A DNA stretch of 64,000 nucleotides from Parachlamydiales bacterium (GTDB lineage: Bacteria > Chlamydiota > Chlamydiia > Chlamydiales > Rhabdochlamydiaceae), in the NCBI GenBank assembly GCA_963705295.1, contig OY970065.1, positions 608,001 to 672,000 of the forward strand, given 5' to 3'. The notes beneath the pieces were generated by a model. The model did not search any database. It was not told the DNA's origin and was given only the letters and a program-made list of their open reading frames with translations. The translations under genes and the position numbers were made by a program. Of this stretch, positions 16,145 to 23,556 are shown piece by piece; within the stretch, counting starts at the first letter, position 1, and every line of letters starts with the position of its first letter.

Positions 16145-17711
<1,567 letters not shown>

Positions 17712-19975
17712 AAAGGACTAAATGGTGTCAACCCCTCATGGGTAAATATGACACCATTAGGTTGAGACAAGCTTGTTCGTTTGAATCATCGCTTCCCTTC
17801 TCTTGTCTAAGCAAGAGATGGAGTGGTTAACACTCTTTGTTATCTTGAAAGTTTGGATAAGATAAGTTTTAAATTAAGTATCAATATATAAGAATATATT
17901 AGAGCGCAATTTTCACTGATGTAAATTAGCGCTTGAGAATGAATTCATATAAATTAATTAATATACGGCGAATTAGCAGCTAAAGATTTTTGATCAAGTT
18001 GCTAAGGGCTGTTGGTGGATGCCTTGGTATCGACAGACGATGAAGGACGTGCAAACCTGCGATAAGCTCCGGGGAGCTGGAACGAAGCTTTGATCCGGAG
18101 ATTTCCGAATGGGGAAACCCAGTGAGAGTAATGTCTCATTATTGCAATCTGAATTCATAAGATTGCAAAGTTACACCTGCCGAAGTGACACATCTCAGTA
18201 GGCAGAGGAAAAGAAATCTAGAAGAGATTCCCATAGTAGCGGCGAGCGAAGTGGGAAAAGCCCAAACCGAGAATTTCGTATTCTCGGGGTTGTAGGGCCC
18301 ATCACATGCGTATTCCAAGTTTTAGCTTAACAACCTGAAAAGGTTGGCGACACAGGGTGATAGCCCCGTGAGCGAAAAGATGAGGAAGCGCGATGGGTAC
18401 CTGAGTATGACCGGCCACGGGAAATCCGGTCTGAATCTGGGGGGACCACCCTCCAAGGCTAAATACTAGTCGATGACCGATAGTGAACCAGTACCGCGAG
18501 GGAAAGGTGAAAAGAACCCCTGTTAGGGGAGTGAAATAGAACCTGAAACCAACAGCTTACAAACGGTCGAAGGCCTATGTCCTCTTTGAGGAAATGGCTG
18601 ACGGCGTGCCTTTTGCATGATGAGCCAGCGAGTTGCGTTAAATGGCAAGGTTAAGGGACTGAAAACGTTCTGGAGCCGAAGCGAAAGCAAGCGTTAATAG
18701 CGCGTTTAGTCATTTGATGCAGACACGAAACCAAGTGATCTATCCATGGTCAGGATGAAACAGGGGTAACACCCTGTGGAGGTCCGAACTAGTAACTGTT
18801 GAAAAAGTTTTGGATGAACTGTGGATAGGGGTGAAAGGCTAATCAAACTTGGAGATATCTTGTTCTCTCCGAAATAACTTTAGGGTTAGCCTTGGCGTTA
18901 ACTTCTTGGGGGTAGAGCACTGAATTCAATAGGGGGGCGACAGCCCTACCGACGGAAATCAAACTCCGAATACCAGGAAGAGTGCCAGGAGATAGACTGC
19001 GGGGGATAAGCTTTGTAGTCAAAAGGGGAACAGCCCAGACCGCCGATTAAGGCCCCAAATTCTATGCTAAGTGGGAAAGGATGTGAAGTTTCAAAGACAG
19101 TTGGGATGTTGGCTTAGAGGCAGCCATCATTTAAAGAGTGCGTAACAGCTCACCAATCGAGAGACTTCGCGCCTATAATATACGGGACTCGAAGTATAGA
19201 GCCGAAATCGCGGATGTACAAGCAATTGTACGTGGTAGGAGAAGCGTAGTATGTGCACTGAAGATGTACCGTGAGGAGCATTGGAGCGCATACTAGTGAT
19301 AATGCATGGCATGAGTAAACGATAAAGATAGTGAAAATCTATCTCGCCGAAAAACTAAGGTTTCCAGGGTCAAGCTCGTCTTCCCTGGGTCAGCCGGTCC
19401 CTAAGCCAAGGCGGAAACGCGTAGGTGATGGGAAGCAGGTTAAACATTCCTGCGCCGCCGTAGTTTATACGACGGGGTGACAAAGTAAGTTAAGCGTGCG
19501 GACCGTTGGATGTGTCCGTTTCGACATGGGGTTGGCTATTAGGTAAATCCGGTAGCGTAATACTCGGTGTTGGACAAGGGGAATCTTCGGAGGAACCGAT
19601 GACGTAGCGCGACACTTTCAAGAAATAGCCCCTAGTTTACGAAGGCGACCGTACCAAAACCGTCACAGGTGGTTAGGATGAATATTCTCAGGCGCGCGAG
19701 ATAACTCTCGTTAAGGAACTCTGCAAATTACCCTCGTAACTTCGGGAGAAGAGGGGCCTGTCTTTGTTATTGACTTCGCGTCAAGAAGCGTAGGCGGGTC
19801 GAAGAGAAATGGCCCAGGCGACTGTTTAACAAAAACACAGCACTATGCAAACTCGTCTAAGAGGAAGTATATGGTGTGATGCCTGCCCAATGCCAAAAGG
19901 TCAAAAGGAGGTGTTAGCCGCAAGGCGAAGCACTGAATTTAAGCCCTGGTGAATGGCGGCCGTAACTATAACGGT

Positions 19976-20186
19976 TAAATCCTTAGATGGCCGTTGTAAA
20001 ATCTGGCTATATGCTGGAACAACTGAGTATGTCATAGTACCAAGCAAAGGTAAAAATCTATGAACGCAGTCAATCAGCAGGAAAGACTAGTGTAAACTAG
20101 AATCCTCAGAGACTATACGCCAGAATCCCATTCTGTGGGATATGATATAGTCCGATCTAACTAGCGATAGTTAGCTAACATAAATG
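19976..20186 (+). mobile_element. Group I intron at 23S position 1923 (ORF-less, 211 nt)
   Basis: Follows exon U and ends in G. IGS GCCGTTG pairs with exon TAACGGT. P3 TCTGGC/GCCAGA. Core motifs AATCAGCAGG, CTCAGAGACTA, GATATAGTCC. Confidence 0.92.
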
Positions 20187-20194
20187 CCTAAGGT

Positions 20195-20817
20195 TAATAG
20201 CTAGCTTTAGTAAAACCAAACTATATGCGGGAAACTCCTCGAAAACTTTTTAGTACTCGCTCCTATTTTGGGGCAGTAAAAATCTAAGAGGCATGGGGAC
20301 AATCCGCAGGAAAGACTAGTTCAATGACTAGAATCCTCAGAGACTATACGTTTGGAGTTTTGTTATGAAATTAGAAGCAGAGTGGATTGTTGGATTTGTG
20401 GATGGAGAAGGTTGTTTTCATGTGTCGATCAATAAACACAATGAAATGACAATCGGCTATCAGGTATTGCCTGAATTCACAGTTGTCCAACACGAAAGAG
20501 ACGTCAAGGTACTTCATGCACTGAAAACGTTTTTTGGTTGTGGAGTGGTTAGAAAAAACCACGGCGACCGAATGGCGTTTCGTGTTAGAGGTTTACAACA
20601 TCTCTCAGAAATCATTGTCCCATTTTTCGAGAAACATCCGTTGATGACGATAAAGCAACTGGATTTTCTCAAATTTCGACGAATTTTGTTAAAAATTCGA
20701 AATGGCGATCATTTAACTCAGCAAGGGATCGAAGAGATTCGATCCATCAAAGAGCAAATGAATCGTTGCAAAACTAAGATAGAGTCCGACTCTTACGGAA
20801 ACATAAGAGACTGATCG
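20195..20817 (+). mobile_element. Group I intron at 23S position 1931 (623 nt) carrying a homing endonuclease
   Basis: Follows CCTAAGGT and ends in G before AGCGAAATTCC. IGS GCTTTAG. P3 CCAAAC/GTTTGG. Core motifs AATCCGCAGG, CTCAGAGACTA, GATAGAGTCC. Confidence 0.93.
20365..20814 (+). CDS. Single-motif LAGLIDADG homing endonuclease
   Basis: WIVGFVDGEGCF motif, FTVVQH, FFGCGVV, IVPFFEKHPL; located inside the intron. Confidence 0.93.
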   Translation: MKLEAEWIVGFVDGEGCFHVSINKHNEMTIGYQVLPEFTVVQHERDVKVLHALKTFFGCGVVRKNHGDRMAFRVRGLQHLSEIIVPFFEKHPLMTIKQLDFLKFRRILLKIRNGDHLTQQGIEEIRSIKEQMNRCKTKIESDSYGNIRD

Positions 20818-20860
<43 letters not shown>

Positions 20861-21252
20861 CTAACGATCTGGGCACTGTCTCGACGGGAGACTCGGTGAA
20901 ATTGTAGTAGCAGTGAAGATGCTGTTTACCCGCAACAAGACGGAAAGACCCCGTGAACCTTTACTATACTCTGATATTGGCTTCTGACTTTTCATGTGTA
21001 GGATAGCTGGGAGACTGTGAAAGTGGCTCGTTAGGGCTGCTGGAGTCAACGGTGAAATACCAGCCTTGAAGAGTCGGAATTCTAACATCTGCCCGTGAAT
21101 CCGGGAGATGGACAGTGTCAGACGGGTAGTTTGACTGGGGCGGTATCCTCCTAAAAAGTAACGGAGGGGTCCAAAGCTTCTCTCATCGTGGTTGGCAATC
21201 ACGAGTTGAGCGTAAAGGTATAAGAGAGGTTAACTGCGAGACCAACAAGTCA

Positions 21253-21284
<32 letters not shown>

Positions 21285-21311
21285 CGGTAGAAAGTGGAAT
21301 CGCCGTCGCTT

Positions 21312-21348
<37 letters not shown>

Positions 21349-21403
21349 GCCACCAAGAGTTCATATCGACGTGGCGGTTTGGCACCTCGATGTCGACTCA
21401 TCG

Positions 21404-21434
<31 letters not shown>

Positions 21435-21919
21435 TGGCTGTTCGCCAATTAAAGCGGTACGCGAGTTGGGTTCAAAACGTCGTGAGACAGTTTGGTCCCT
21501 ATCTGTTGTGGGCGTAGGATACTTGAGAAGAGCTGCTTCTAGTACGAGAGGACCGAAGTGGACGAACCAATGGTGTGCTGGTTGTATTGCCAAGTGCAAA
21601 GCCAGGTAGCTATGTTCGGAAAGGATAAGCGTTGAAAGCATCTAAACGCCAAGCCTCCTTCAAGATAAGGTATCCCATGAGACCCCCGGGAGATTACCGG
21701 GTTGATAGGTTGGGTGTATAAGCGTAGTAATGCGCTGAGCTAACCAATACTAATCGGTCGATTGACTTGATCTTCCTTTTTATTTTCGGCTTCGCTCTTA
21801 TTTTAAGAGCCAAGTCAATGATAATAAAAAGCTGAAGCGCCAATATTAGTTATGAATTCATAACCTACAAGCGCTATTTTACATCAATGATTTAAGACGA
21901 TAATTATCCAAACAATTTT

Positions 21920-22035
21920 ACCTGGTGGCTATTGAGAAGGGGAAATACCTGATCCCATCCCGAACTCAGCAGTTAAGTCCTTCATCGCCGATGGTACTGT
22001 ACGCAAGAGTATGGTAGAGTAGGTTGCCGCCAGGT
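21920..22035 (+). rRNA. rrf: 5S rRNA
   Basis: Terminal stem CCTGGTGG/CCGCCAGG, GATCCCATCCCGAAC, CGCCGATGGTACTG. Confidence 0.95.
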
Positions 22036-22045
22036 TTTTTCTTCG

Positions 22046-22077
22046 CCCTAGTTGGCTTTGCTGACTAGGGTTTTTTT
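22046..22077 (+). terminator. Intrinsic terminator of the rRNA operon
   Basis: CCCTAGTTGGC-TTT-GCTGACTAGGG followed by T7. Confidence 0.85.
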
Positions 22078-22093
22078 ATTTTAAAAATCAGCT

Positions 22094-22217
22094 TCAATTG
22101 TCTTGATCGAGTTCTGCCTTTGTCAAAAGACCCATGAAGGTTGGCATTGGCTTTTTTTTTGGCCACGAGCCTCAAACCAACAGAAGAGCATGTTGCCGTG
22201 GAATGGCTCACGCGACA
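22094..22217 (-). pseudogene. Degenerate C-terminal fragment of the Asp-box/BNR paralog family
   Basis: Translates with frameshifts as SREPFHGNMLFCWFEARGQK..ANAN..FMGLLTKAELDQDN*, versus family SRDPFFGNMLFSWFDARNQK...FMGILTKSELDQD. Confidence 0.75.
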
Positions 22218-22305
22218 AGAAAGGAGATTTATATTCCTACGTGGTTGAGTTGTTTGAGGAAAAGTGAGTTACCTTTAATCGGTATTTATTTATTATTTCT
22301 TAATT

Positions 22306-23556
22306 ATGGCAAGTCTTGTTGCGTCTTTAGAGGCGAGAGTGAGAGATAGTCGATTGATTTGGCGGGCGCAGCAACAGCTCGATCCATCTCTTCCTCATAA
22401 GCGGTATAAAATGTTAGAGCATGATCAGTGGCCTGAAGTCATGAAACTTGCTCGAATTTTTAATTCTTTTGTTTATGGCAAGTTAATGCAGAAGGTTCCT
22501 TCATTTTACAGAATTGATCGCCAGCAAGGGATATGTTATTTCCCTAGAACAACTGAAACACAAACGGAGCATCGACTCTTTGAGAACAGTTTCTTGGATC
22601 GCTTTACACATGTCATTTGTATACTTTCCCCGATGGAGTTTGTTTTGGTCGATTCCAAACACATGGCATATAAATTTCATGTCGATCCACAGACGTTATT
22701 GTGGAGTGTCACGAATCTTCCCAATATTCTAGATCGTATTTTACAATCGATTTTTCAGGCTTTTGGGCCCAAGCTGTATACTTCTGGTTTACTCCAAGGA
22801 TTGGACGTTTGGAAAATGCGGATCAGATCCATGGAACTTCAAAACCATTCGATCAACATCAGAATAAGAATTGGAGATTATGGTTCCTATTTTTTGGTGT
22901 ATGACTCAAGTCAGGAGACTTCATCCTGTTGTCTTGGACAATTGAGCCTTCTAGCTCACCAGATAGGTGGATCTATTAGAATTCATATAAGTGAAAAGAA
23001 TTTTTCCATCCCAGTGAGCGATAAAACTGATATGGAGCTTGTTCAGGTATCCAATAATTTTTTGGTCGTCACGGCTCATTTAGAGGATCGGGAGCACAAC
23101 GTGTCGCAGTACCGTTTTAATATCTATGATCTCATTTCGGGGTGTCTCATTTTTTGCTATATCCCCCACTCACAAAATGAAGACTATAAGCCTCAAAAGG
23201 TGTTCTTTTTTAAAAGATTTGCCCTTTTTTATTATCAAAGGTCAGATCGCCAGCTACGTGCAAATCTCATCGACCTTGAAAGGAAGATCGCTATTCCTTT
23301 GACAGAACTCACACAAGATCTATTTTGCTCTTTTGATACGATCACAGGTCTTGACTTTATAGAAACAAATCAAGGGACCGTACATGCTGTTTTAAAAGGG
23401 GAGCGCGATGATGAAACATATGTTATTGAAAGTGAAATCAACCCGTACCAAAACAATCCTCTTATCTATTTAGATCAAGGTTTAGAAGTCGTATCTAATC
23501 AAAAGAGCCCCGAAAACCGTCCCGTGCGGGAAAGTTGCGGTTGTGGCTATGCTTGA
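22306..23556 (+). CDS. Hypothetical protein
   Basis: 416-aa ORF with no motif recognised. Confidence 0.65.
   Translation: MASLVASLEARVRDSRLIWRAQQQLDPSLPHKRYKMLEHDQWPEVMKLARIFNSFVYGKLMQKVPSFYRIDRQQGICYFPRTTETQTEHRLFENSFLDRFTHVICILSPMEFVLVDSKHMAYKFHVDPQTLLWSVTNLPNILDRILQSIFQAFGPKLYTSGLLQGLDVWKMRIRSMELQNHSINIRIRIGDYGSYFLVYDSSQETSSCCLGQLSLLAHQIGGSIRIHISEKNFSIPVSDKTDMELVQVSNNFLVVTAHLEDREHNVSQYRFNIYDLISGCLIFCYIPHSQNEDYKPQKVFFFKRFALFYYQRSDRQLRANLIDLERKIAIPLTELTQDLFCSFDTITGLDFIETNQGTVHAVLKGERDDETYVIESEINPYQNNPLIYLDQGLEVVSNQKSPENRPVRESCGCGYA

Follow-up and report, generated by a model that had tools for sequence, protein, structure and literature searches.

Group I introns that flank a short exon have been described from an archaeal contig, from bacteria and from a phage. 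Here we compare with them a pair found in a 64,000-nucleotide (nt) stretch of a Chlamydiota genome (Parachlamydiales bacterium, contig OY970065.1, positions 608,001 to 672,000; the whole stretch is called the window below), where two introns, at L1923 and L1931 of the 23S ribosomal RNA (rRNA) gene, are separated by a micro-exon of 8 nt. The nearest described case is on archaeal contig KP308720.1, for which an IB4.7 intron at large subunit (LSU) position LSU/1923 (21440-21763) and an IB4.15 intron at LSU/1931 (21772-22514) are tabulated (Nawrocki, Jones & Eddy, 2018, PMC6125680). As in the window, the same two sites are occupied, the gap is 8 nt by coordinates, and a short L1923 intron (324 nt) precedes a long L1931 intron (743 nt); both archaeal introns are assigned to one subgroup, and those of the window are IB4-like. 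However, the host is archaeal, the comparison is one of coordinates and not of sequence, and in the accessible part of that paper the pair is tabulated without discussion of the micro-exon.

In Coxiella burnetii, introns Cbu.L1917 and Cbu.L1951 flank a 34-nt exon, and in phage Twort Orf142 the exon so flanked is 23 nt long (PMC10136302, accessible part). Both resemble the window in that tandem self-splicing group I introns flank a short exon and splice-site choice is an issue. Unlike the window, exons of 23-34 nt leave room for the upstream P10 and the downstream P1, which need not share bases. The two Coxiella introns also belong to different subgroups (IB2 and IA3), and exon skipping has been observed there, whereas it is predicted to be disfavored in the window. 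In Synechococcus sp. C9, the 23S gene has introns at L1917, L1931 and L2593 (Haugen et al., 2007, PMC1995217). The likeness lies in the presence of several LAGLIDADG-encoding introns, of which two lie 14 nt from each other within H69-H71, and in an L1931 intron and endonuclease of the same type; the upstream intron, unlike that of the window, is at L1917 and has its own endonuclease gene. Simkania negevensis, of the same phylum as the window, has an L1931 intron of 654 nt with a 143-amino-acid (aa) LAGLIDADG protein (PMC1995217), at an "I-CpaI target site" (PMC6019428). Site and endonuclease type are shared with the window, but the intron is single, with no L1923 partner.

The window twin is a new example of a known arrangement, since the pair is already tabulated for an archaeal contig (PMC6125680, accessible part) and tandem 23S introns around short exons are already known in bacteria (Coxiella, Synechococcus). 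Literature searches, with subscription journals outside their scope, found no description of a bacterial L1923 and L1931 pair. The bacterial sites given in PMC1995217 are L1917, L1931, L1951 and L2593, without L1923, which is likewise absent from the sites given in PMC11270868, and L1923 is an addition to these lists. The window twin is also a limiting case, its 8-nt exon being wholly claimed by both ribozymes, compared with exons of 23 and 34 nt. All four genotypes (neither intron, L1923 only, L1931 only, both) occur within one genus, which offers a ready comparison of how neighboring ribozymes avoid exon skipping and of two homing endonucleases with overlapping targets. Natural tandem cases have had no mechanistic analysis, according to the accessible part of PMC10136302.

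Two introns around an 8-nt exon in the only 23S gene

The window belongs to a 2.13-Mb genome that is a single contig with one rRNA operon. The operon is complete and bacterial by Rfam (16S 16145-17711, 23S 17992-21774, 5S 21921-22035), and the 23S gene is the sole genomic copy, its 3' part being found once in the whole genome. Its exons share 82-87% identity with those of chlamydial metagenome-assembled genomes (MAGs), compared with about 66% for other phyla, which places the host in the Chlamydiota. Read directly, the gene runs from ...AACGGT through intron 1 (19976-20186), CCTAAGGT (20187-20194) and intron 2 (20195-20817) into AGCGAAATTCC. The features on which the argument turns are as follows.

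17992..21774, plus strand: 23S rRNA gene with two introns inside (Rfam LSU_rRNA_bacteria, 2657 bits, model 1-2925)
19970..19975, plus strand: end of exon 1 (6 nt, AACGGU), forming the 5' strand of intron 1 P1, with U19975 the 5' splice-site U; pairs with 19989-19995
19976..20186, plus strand: intron 1, group I without an open reading frame (ORF), L1923, 211 nt (Rfam Intron_gpI)
19981..19986, plus strand: P10 guide CCUUAG of intron 1, in the P1 loop; complementary to micro-exon 20188-20193
19989..19995, plus strand: internal guide sequence GGCCGUU of intron 1; pairs with the end of exon 1
20187..20194, plus strand: micro-exon CCUAAGGU, 23S 1924-1931, pairing partner of both introns (direct reading)
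20195..20817, plus strand: intron 2, group I, L1931, 623 nt, whose P8 loop holds an endonuclease gene (Rfam Intron_gpI)
20204..20210, plus strand: internal guide sequence GCUUUAG of intron 2; pairs with micro-exon 20188-20194
20818..20820, plus strand: start of exon 3 (AGC), which pairs weakly as P10 with GCU 20200-20202 of intron 2; 3 bp, -3.0 kcal/mol

A first-pass annotation, made from the sequence alone, had claimed two group I introns at L1923 and L1931 and had named an Rfam search as a check; both the claim and the check come out in its favor. Intron_gpI (RF00028, gathering score 50) matches the 23S gene at 19966-20174 (68.0 bits) and at 20185-20808 (51.8 bits), each match spanning model positions 1-253, and these are the only group I intron matches genome-wide. 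Both 5' splice sites have a U.G wobble pair (U19975.G19990 and U20194.G20204), and both introns have the terminal (omega) G directly before the following exon (G20186 and G20817), as expected of group I members. The end of exon 1 aligns to nt 1925 of an annotated Escherichia coli 23S copy of 2906 nt, a nucleotide that we take to be U1923 in the conventional 2904-nt numbering. The spacing of 8 nt equals 1931 minus 1923 and matches Table 1 of PMC6125680.

An assembly artefact or chimeric contig has a negligible probability; the same annotation had named misassembly as one of two findings that would refute its claim. The genome is assembled as a single contig, and two diverged genomes of the genus (G015 and G016) have the twin as well, around an identical 8-nt exon. 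Between twins the identity is 85-89% for intron 1, 79-81% for intron 2 and 92-95% for the exons. Misassembly can therefore be set aside, and the twin group I introns in the only 23S gene are real.

The micro-exon is covered by two competing helices. P10 of intron 1 pairs CCUUAG with CUAAGG in a perfect 6-bp helix of -7.8 kcal/mol, and P1 of intron 2 pairs GCUUUAG with CUAAGGU in 7 bp, two of them G.U, at -6.2 kcal/mol for the duplex and -7.2 kcal/mol for the local hairpin; the two are compared by helix energies, P10 being a pseudoknot relative to P1. These coordinates and pairings agree with the earlier proposal that the micro-exon is partner to P10 of intron 1 and to P1 of intron 2, through the same bases and in mutually exclusive helices. 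The pairings overlap because two such introns sit 8 nt apart. The chance of a complement to the micro-exon of at least 6 nt in a random 13-mer of intron composition is p = 0.0042. The P10 guide lies 2 nt 5' of the internal guide and is the same in G016 and CCUUAAG in G015. The micro-exon itself is identical in all ten 23S genes of the genus that are assembled at this site.

Ribozymes, endonuclease and their distribution

The helices assigned to the two introns, and the gene within the second, are given below; P3 of intron 1, which the pseudoknot-free predictor missed, was read by eye.

Intron 1, plus strand: P3 20002-20007/20119-20124; P4 20012-20017/20074-20079; P7 20111-20117/20146-20152; P8 20125-20130/20136-20141; P9 20157-20163/20168-20174
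Intron 2, plus strand: P3 20216-20221/20350-20355; P4 20226-20231/20303-20308; P7 20341-20347/20780-20786; P8 about 20357-20362/20769-20774; P9 20790-20795/20804-20809
20365..20814, plus strand: ORF for a single-motif LAGLIDADG homing endonuclease, 149 aa (Pfam LAGLIDADG_1, E = 1.3e-26)

In intron 1, no ORF of 60 aa or more is present. Among five aligned chlamydial L1923 introns, the P1 pairs (duplex of -10.0 kcal/mol in the window) are retained in all five, and 17 of the 59 predicted pairs show compensatory changes, in P5, P7, P8 and P9. These changes support the view that selection maintains intron 1 as a ribozyme. For intron 2, Rfam aligns the core elements, which are conserved across 24 distinct sequences, and homologous introns occupy the same L1931 site in 21 other distinct sequences; its P1 loop is shorter in the window genome (G000) than in G015 and G016. 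The P2 positions of the Rfam model are deleted in both intron alignments, and introns at LSU/1923 and LSU/1931 are classed as IB4 in the accessible part of PMC6125680. By sequence, the two appear to be homologous group I ribozymes, P2-less and IB4-like. Their P6/P7 sequences are nearly identical, but P1, P3, P4 and P8 differ. A recent duplication of intron 2 as the source of intron 1 was considered and rejected: the shared core marks a family, since it is conserved in L1931 introns of many phyla, and the four differing helices also oppose a recent duplication.

The 149-aa protein matches PF00961 with 93.9 bits (cut-off 23.1) over residues 8-107, with WIVGFVDGEG in the motif region. In the PDB its relatives include I-SmaMI and I-OnuI, two-domain enzymes of which each half aligns to the whole 149-aa protein (E = 5e-53). 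The protein is thus predicted to be a single-motif LAGLIDADG_1 endonuclease of the homodimeric type. A GGAG lies 7 nt 5' of its ATG and overlaps the 3' strand of P3. At the other end of the gene, the final 15 or so codons (20769-20814) overlap the 3' strands of P8 and P7 and also P9 of the ribozyme, and the gene stops 3 nt short of the 3' splice site. All three twin genomes have an intact ORF, the orthologues being 150 aa long in G016 and 138 aa in G015. In each of the three, the endonuclease gene is in the L1931 intron, and the L1923 intron has no ORF. I-ShaI, an enzyme of bacteria of the candidate phyla radiation (CPR) from insertion class 23IS7, which is 1931 by that paper's order of sites, has been shown to be active, although it is a different protein (PMC11270868).

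Relatives of the window endonuclease were found at 22 loci in many phyla, and 17 of them were confirmed as single introns at exactly L1931; the remaining five (L016, L017, L028, L031 and L032) were unclassified by the flank-motif script and are left out of the counts. The close relatives (L012-L033, 48-77% aa identity) come from MAGs labelled Gemmatimonadota, Pseudohongiella, Acidobacteriota, Chloroflexota, Acidimicrobiia, Bacteroidota, Patescibacteria and others. CPR bacteria are rich in such 23S introns (PMC11270868). With these numbers, the statement that group I introns are rare in bacterial 23S genes, made in the first-pass annotation, is outdated. The endonuclease tree is at odds with host taxonomy, which at the sequence level indicates wide horizontal spread. 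Nor are the endonucleases of the twins monophyletic: that of G016 groups with the single-intron locus L012 (92%) and then with that of G015 (92%), and the window protein is 67% identical to that of G016, 75% to that of G015 and 77% to that of G379, a genome of another family. The L1923 introns of the three twins, unlike their endonucleases, are close relatives of each other.

The genus was sampled with 19 genomes, of which ten have this 23S site assembled. The twin is present in three (G000, G015 and G016), and five are intron-free (G003, G007, G008, G011 and G012). In G005 only the L1923 intron is present (L154 929-1621, minus strand). It is 675 nt long, with an intact 178-aa LAGLIDADG ORF in its P6 loop. 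The encoded protein matches the I-CeuI structure 2ex5 (E = 2.9e-27), indirect support for the earlier identification of L1923 as the I-CeuI site, and is 32% identical to the window endonuclease. The ribozyme part of the G005 intron and intron 1 of the window share 84% identity. Intron 1 is without any endonuclease gene, and its P6 loop, the site of the gene in G005, has only 6 nt. The G005 intron is likely to represent the endonuclease-bearing ancestor state of intron 1. In G014 only an L1931 intron is present (L171). It is 238 nt long and ORF-less, P8 being a short hairpin, and is a clean case of loss of the endonuclease gene with the ribozyme kept. An exon tree of nine genomes (G008 was omitted because too little upstream exon is assembled) places the three twins in three different groups with 95-98% support, and the twin genome G015 is sister to the intron-free G011 with 96% bootstrap.

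Splicing and origin of the pair

The explanation that we favor, and consider reasonably probable, is that the window has two genuine ribozymes that splice in a non-obligatory order and keep the micro-exon, the pair being a composite selfish element. Because the 23S gene has no second copy, both introns most likely self-splice from the precursor rRNA. Alternative helices would span the whole micro-exon, with P10 of intron 1 aligning the 3' splice site and P1 of intron 2 presenting the 5' splice site. The two could not form together, yet this would impose no fixed order, since intron 1 requires P10 in its second step alone. Were intron 2 to splice first, the micro-exon would be freed for intron 1 and the conflict would vanish. 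If intron 1 splices first, its P10 would have to displace transiently the similarly stable P1 hairpin of intron 2, or ligation would use the terminal G alone. Such an exchange is conceivable because both helices are short and nearly iso-energetic (-6 to -9 kcal/mol). A kinetic preference for intron 1 is plausible, since transcription would finish intron 1 about 620 nt ahead of the intron 2 core.

The introns are expected to be kept apart as separate ribozymes by the strong and specific P10 guide of intron 1 and by their different P3 helices. Cognate P3 helices are predicted at -10.9 and -7.8 kcal/mol and chimeric ones at -1.1 and +1.1; the guide of intron 1 against exon 3 gives +0.2 kcal/mol and that of intron 2 against exon 1 gives -0.4. 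Intron 1 would thereby be directed to the proximal 3' splice site, and the micro-exon included and not skipped. We infer that the strong P10 is mainly a fidelity device for choosing the proximal site, and exon skipping is probably disfavored in the window twin, judging from the modelled energies. Experiments have shown skipping of a short exon flanked by tandem group I introns, and its suppression by distinct P1/P10 elements in an engineered tandem system (Ueda et al., 2023, PMC10136302, accessible part).

As to origin, the pair appears to have been built by an invasion driven by the L1931 endonuclease, which would also carry intron 1 along. An L1931 intron with a LAGLIDADG endonuclease, predicted to be active, would have invaded alleles that already held the L1923 intron. 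We take the I-CpaI-type site to be centered a few bases downstream of 1931, and the I-CeuI-type site to be centered around 1926/1927 and to span 1931. With the L1931-type cleavage center downstream of the insertion, an intron at 1923 would leave the core site unbroken, whereas the L1923 (I-CeuI-type) target would be destroyed by intron 2. An L1923 endonuclease gene would then be useless, since its target is gone, and could disappear; intron 1, with no ORF and lying about 12 bp from the cut site, would be co-converted along with intron 2. The I-CpaI target is described as having CG at central positions -2 and -1 (PMC3413129, accessible part), and the only nearby CG in exon 3 of the window, 20820-20821, would place the center about 4 nt downstream of the insertion site.

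An extended version adds co-adapted RNA recognition to the composite mobile element: the L1923 ribozyme would ride on the L1931 endonuclease, the reverse invasion being impossible, and a stronger P10 in intron 1 with a weaker P1 in intron 2 would allow a 5'-to-3' hand-over without skipping. If it were true, the twin would be a minimal natural system for exon hand-over between two ribozymes, but we regard it as rather unlikely. The P10 guide to the micro-exon is also found, in weaker form, in two L1923 introns that have no L1931 neighbor (-4.5 kcal/mol in G005 and -2.9 in G193), and is stronger in the three twins (-7.8, -7.8 and -6.0). The intron 2 guide has an extra G.U in all three twins, against three of 21 single L1931 introns. 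The change of guide in G016 costs just 0.3 kcal/mol. Together these are weak hints of co-adaptation.

The same asymmetries, favoring P10 of intron 1, could be read as a regulatory gate, in which competition for the micro-exon enforces an order or a switch and so times folding of H69-H71 and maturation of the 50S subunit. The first-pass annotation leaned this way, holding that splicing must be ordered or switched and could gate ribosome maturation. The two helices do use the same bases with similar stability, and transcription of intron 1 about 620 nt ahead of the intron 2 core makes a 5'-to-3' kinetic order plausible. However, either order is chemically possible with nearly iso-energetic helices, P10 is known in general to be often dispensable in group I introns, and the single-intron genome G379 has the same weakened guide as the window. 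The host also seems to have no need of the arrangement, since half of the assembled 23S genes of the genus are intron-free and a twin is sister to an intron-free genome. Because the introns are polymorphic within one genus, selfish mobile elements fit better than a host regulatory device. Neither part of the earlier claim is borne out, and a gate is distinctly unlikely; what is known of ribosome maturation is unchanged unless splicing order is shown to matter.

Still less likely is that the introns are unspliced or partly spliced in vivo, and either retained in 23S rRNA or accompanied by its fragmentation. It has a precedent within the phylum, the Simkania L1931 intron, by a paper's title only. 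Against it, both ribozyme cores are conserved with compensatory changes, and three species have kept their splice-site U.G pairs, terminal G, P1 and P10 intact, which is unexpected if splicing is not selected; moreover, with no second 23S gene, an insert of 834 nt at the H69/H70 junction would lie at the subunit interface. Cooperation of the two introns as one large ribozyme, or stepwise splicing to the distal site with the micro-exon skipped, is very improbable. The nearly identical P6/P7 core would permit it, and skipping between tandem group I introns is documented (PMC10136302, accessible part), but the chimeric P3 helices are unstable next to the cognate ones and no pairing is predicted between the guide of intron 1 and exon 3. 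Without 1924-1931 in its only 23S rRNA, the cell would also very probably not be viable.

Several points weigh against the composite selfish element with two active ribozymes. Splicing evidence from this organism was not found: in four metatranscriptomes the depth was on conserved exon pieces of other bacteria only (intron bins, 0 to 29), and a sequencing-run search returned 24 runs, none with half of the query words. Many joints of 19975 to 20818 in the metatranscriptomes carry micro-exon variants of 7-10 letters, but they come from intron-less 23S rRNAs of other organisms and are therefore uninformative for this one. The Simkania L1931 intron, the one studied chlamydial case, is reportedly "unspliced", to go by the title of Everett 1999. 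The target argument draws on the I-CeuI and I-CpaI registers taken as background, with one passage that supports them indirectly, and assumes the I-CpaI register for the window enzyme. Bootstrap support is weak (65 and 48%) at the nodes that part the window endonuclease from the G015/G016 clade, and a single origin of the twin followed by losses is a tenable alternative. The introns are more diverged (79-89% identity) than the exons (92-95%), a difference compatible with both long residence and transfer. The hints of co-adaptation come from a small sample and are phylogenetically confounded, the guide of the single-intron G379 being that of the window.

Further introns in the phylum and in metagenomes

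A search of 41 related genomes gave group I matches at E <=0.001 in seven, above the cut-off in five. Nine genomes in a 400-genome sample of the phylum match intron 1 DNA; within this sample, L1923 alone is occupied in G193 and L1931 alone in G074, G272 and G379. In another genome of the same order (G036, contig 92), a locus on a 2.5-kb contig matches Intron_gpI with 72.7 bits (L005, 1103-1307, minus strand). On that contig no LSU rRNA match surrounds it, and the intron may lie in a different host gene.

A metagenome scan with a 14-mer from the exon 1/intron 1 junction gave at least 118 stretches, with no L1923 and L1931 twin among the matches listed. Five of the matches listed are in 23S context, and two of these (L040 and L059) were examined: in both, an L1923 intron with an endonuclease gene is succeeded by normal exon and then by a second insertion near L1951. 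In a genome of another chlamydial family, G338 (L156, from 1476), an L1923 intron is likewise followed by exon up to ...GGGTAAG(T) and then by an insertion in the L1951 region. The P4-P6 part of this L1923 intron resembles L1931 introns, which suggests module exchange between the L1923 and L1931 intron lineages.

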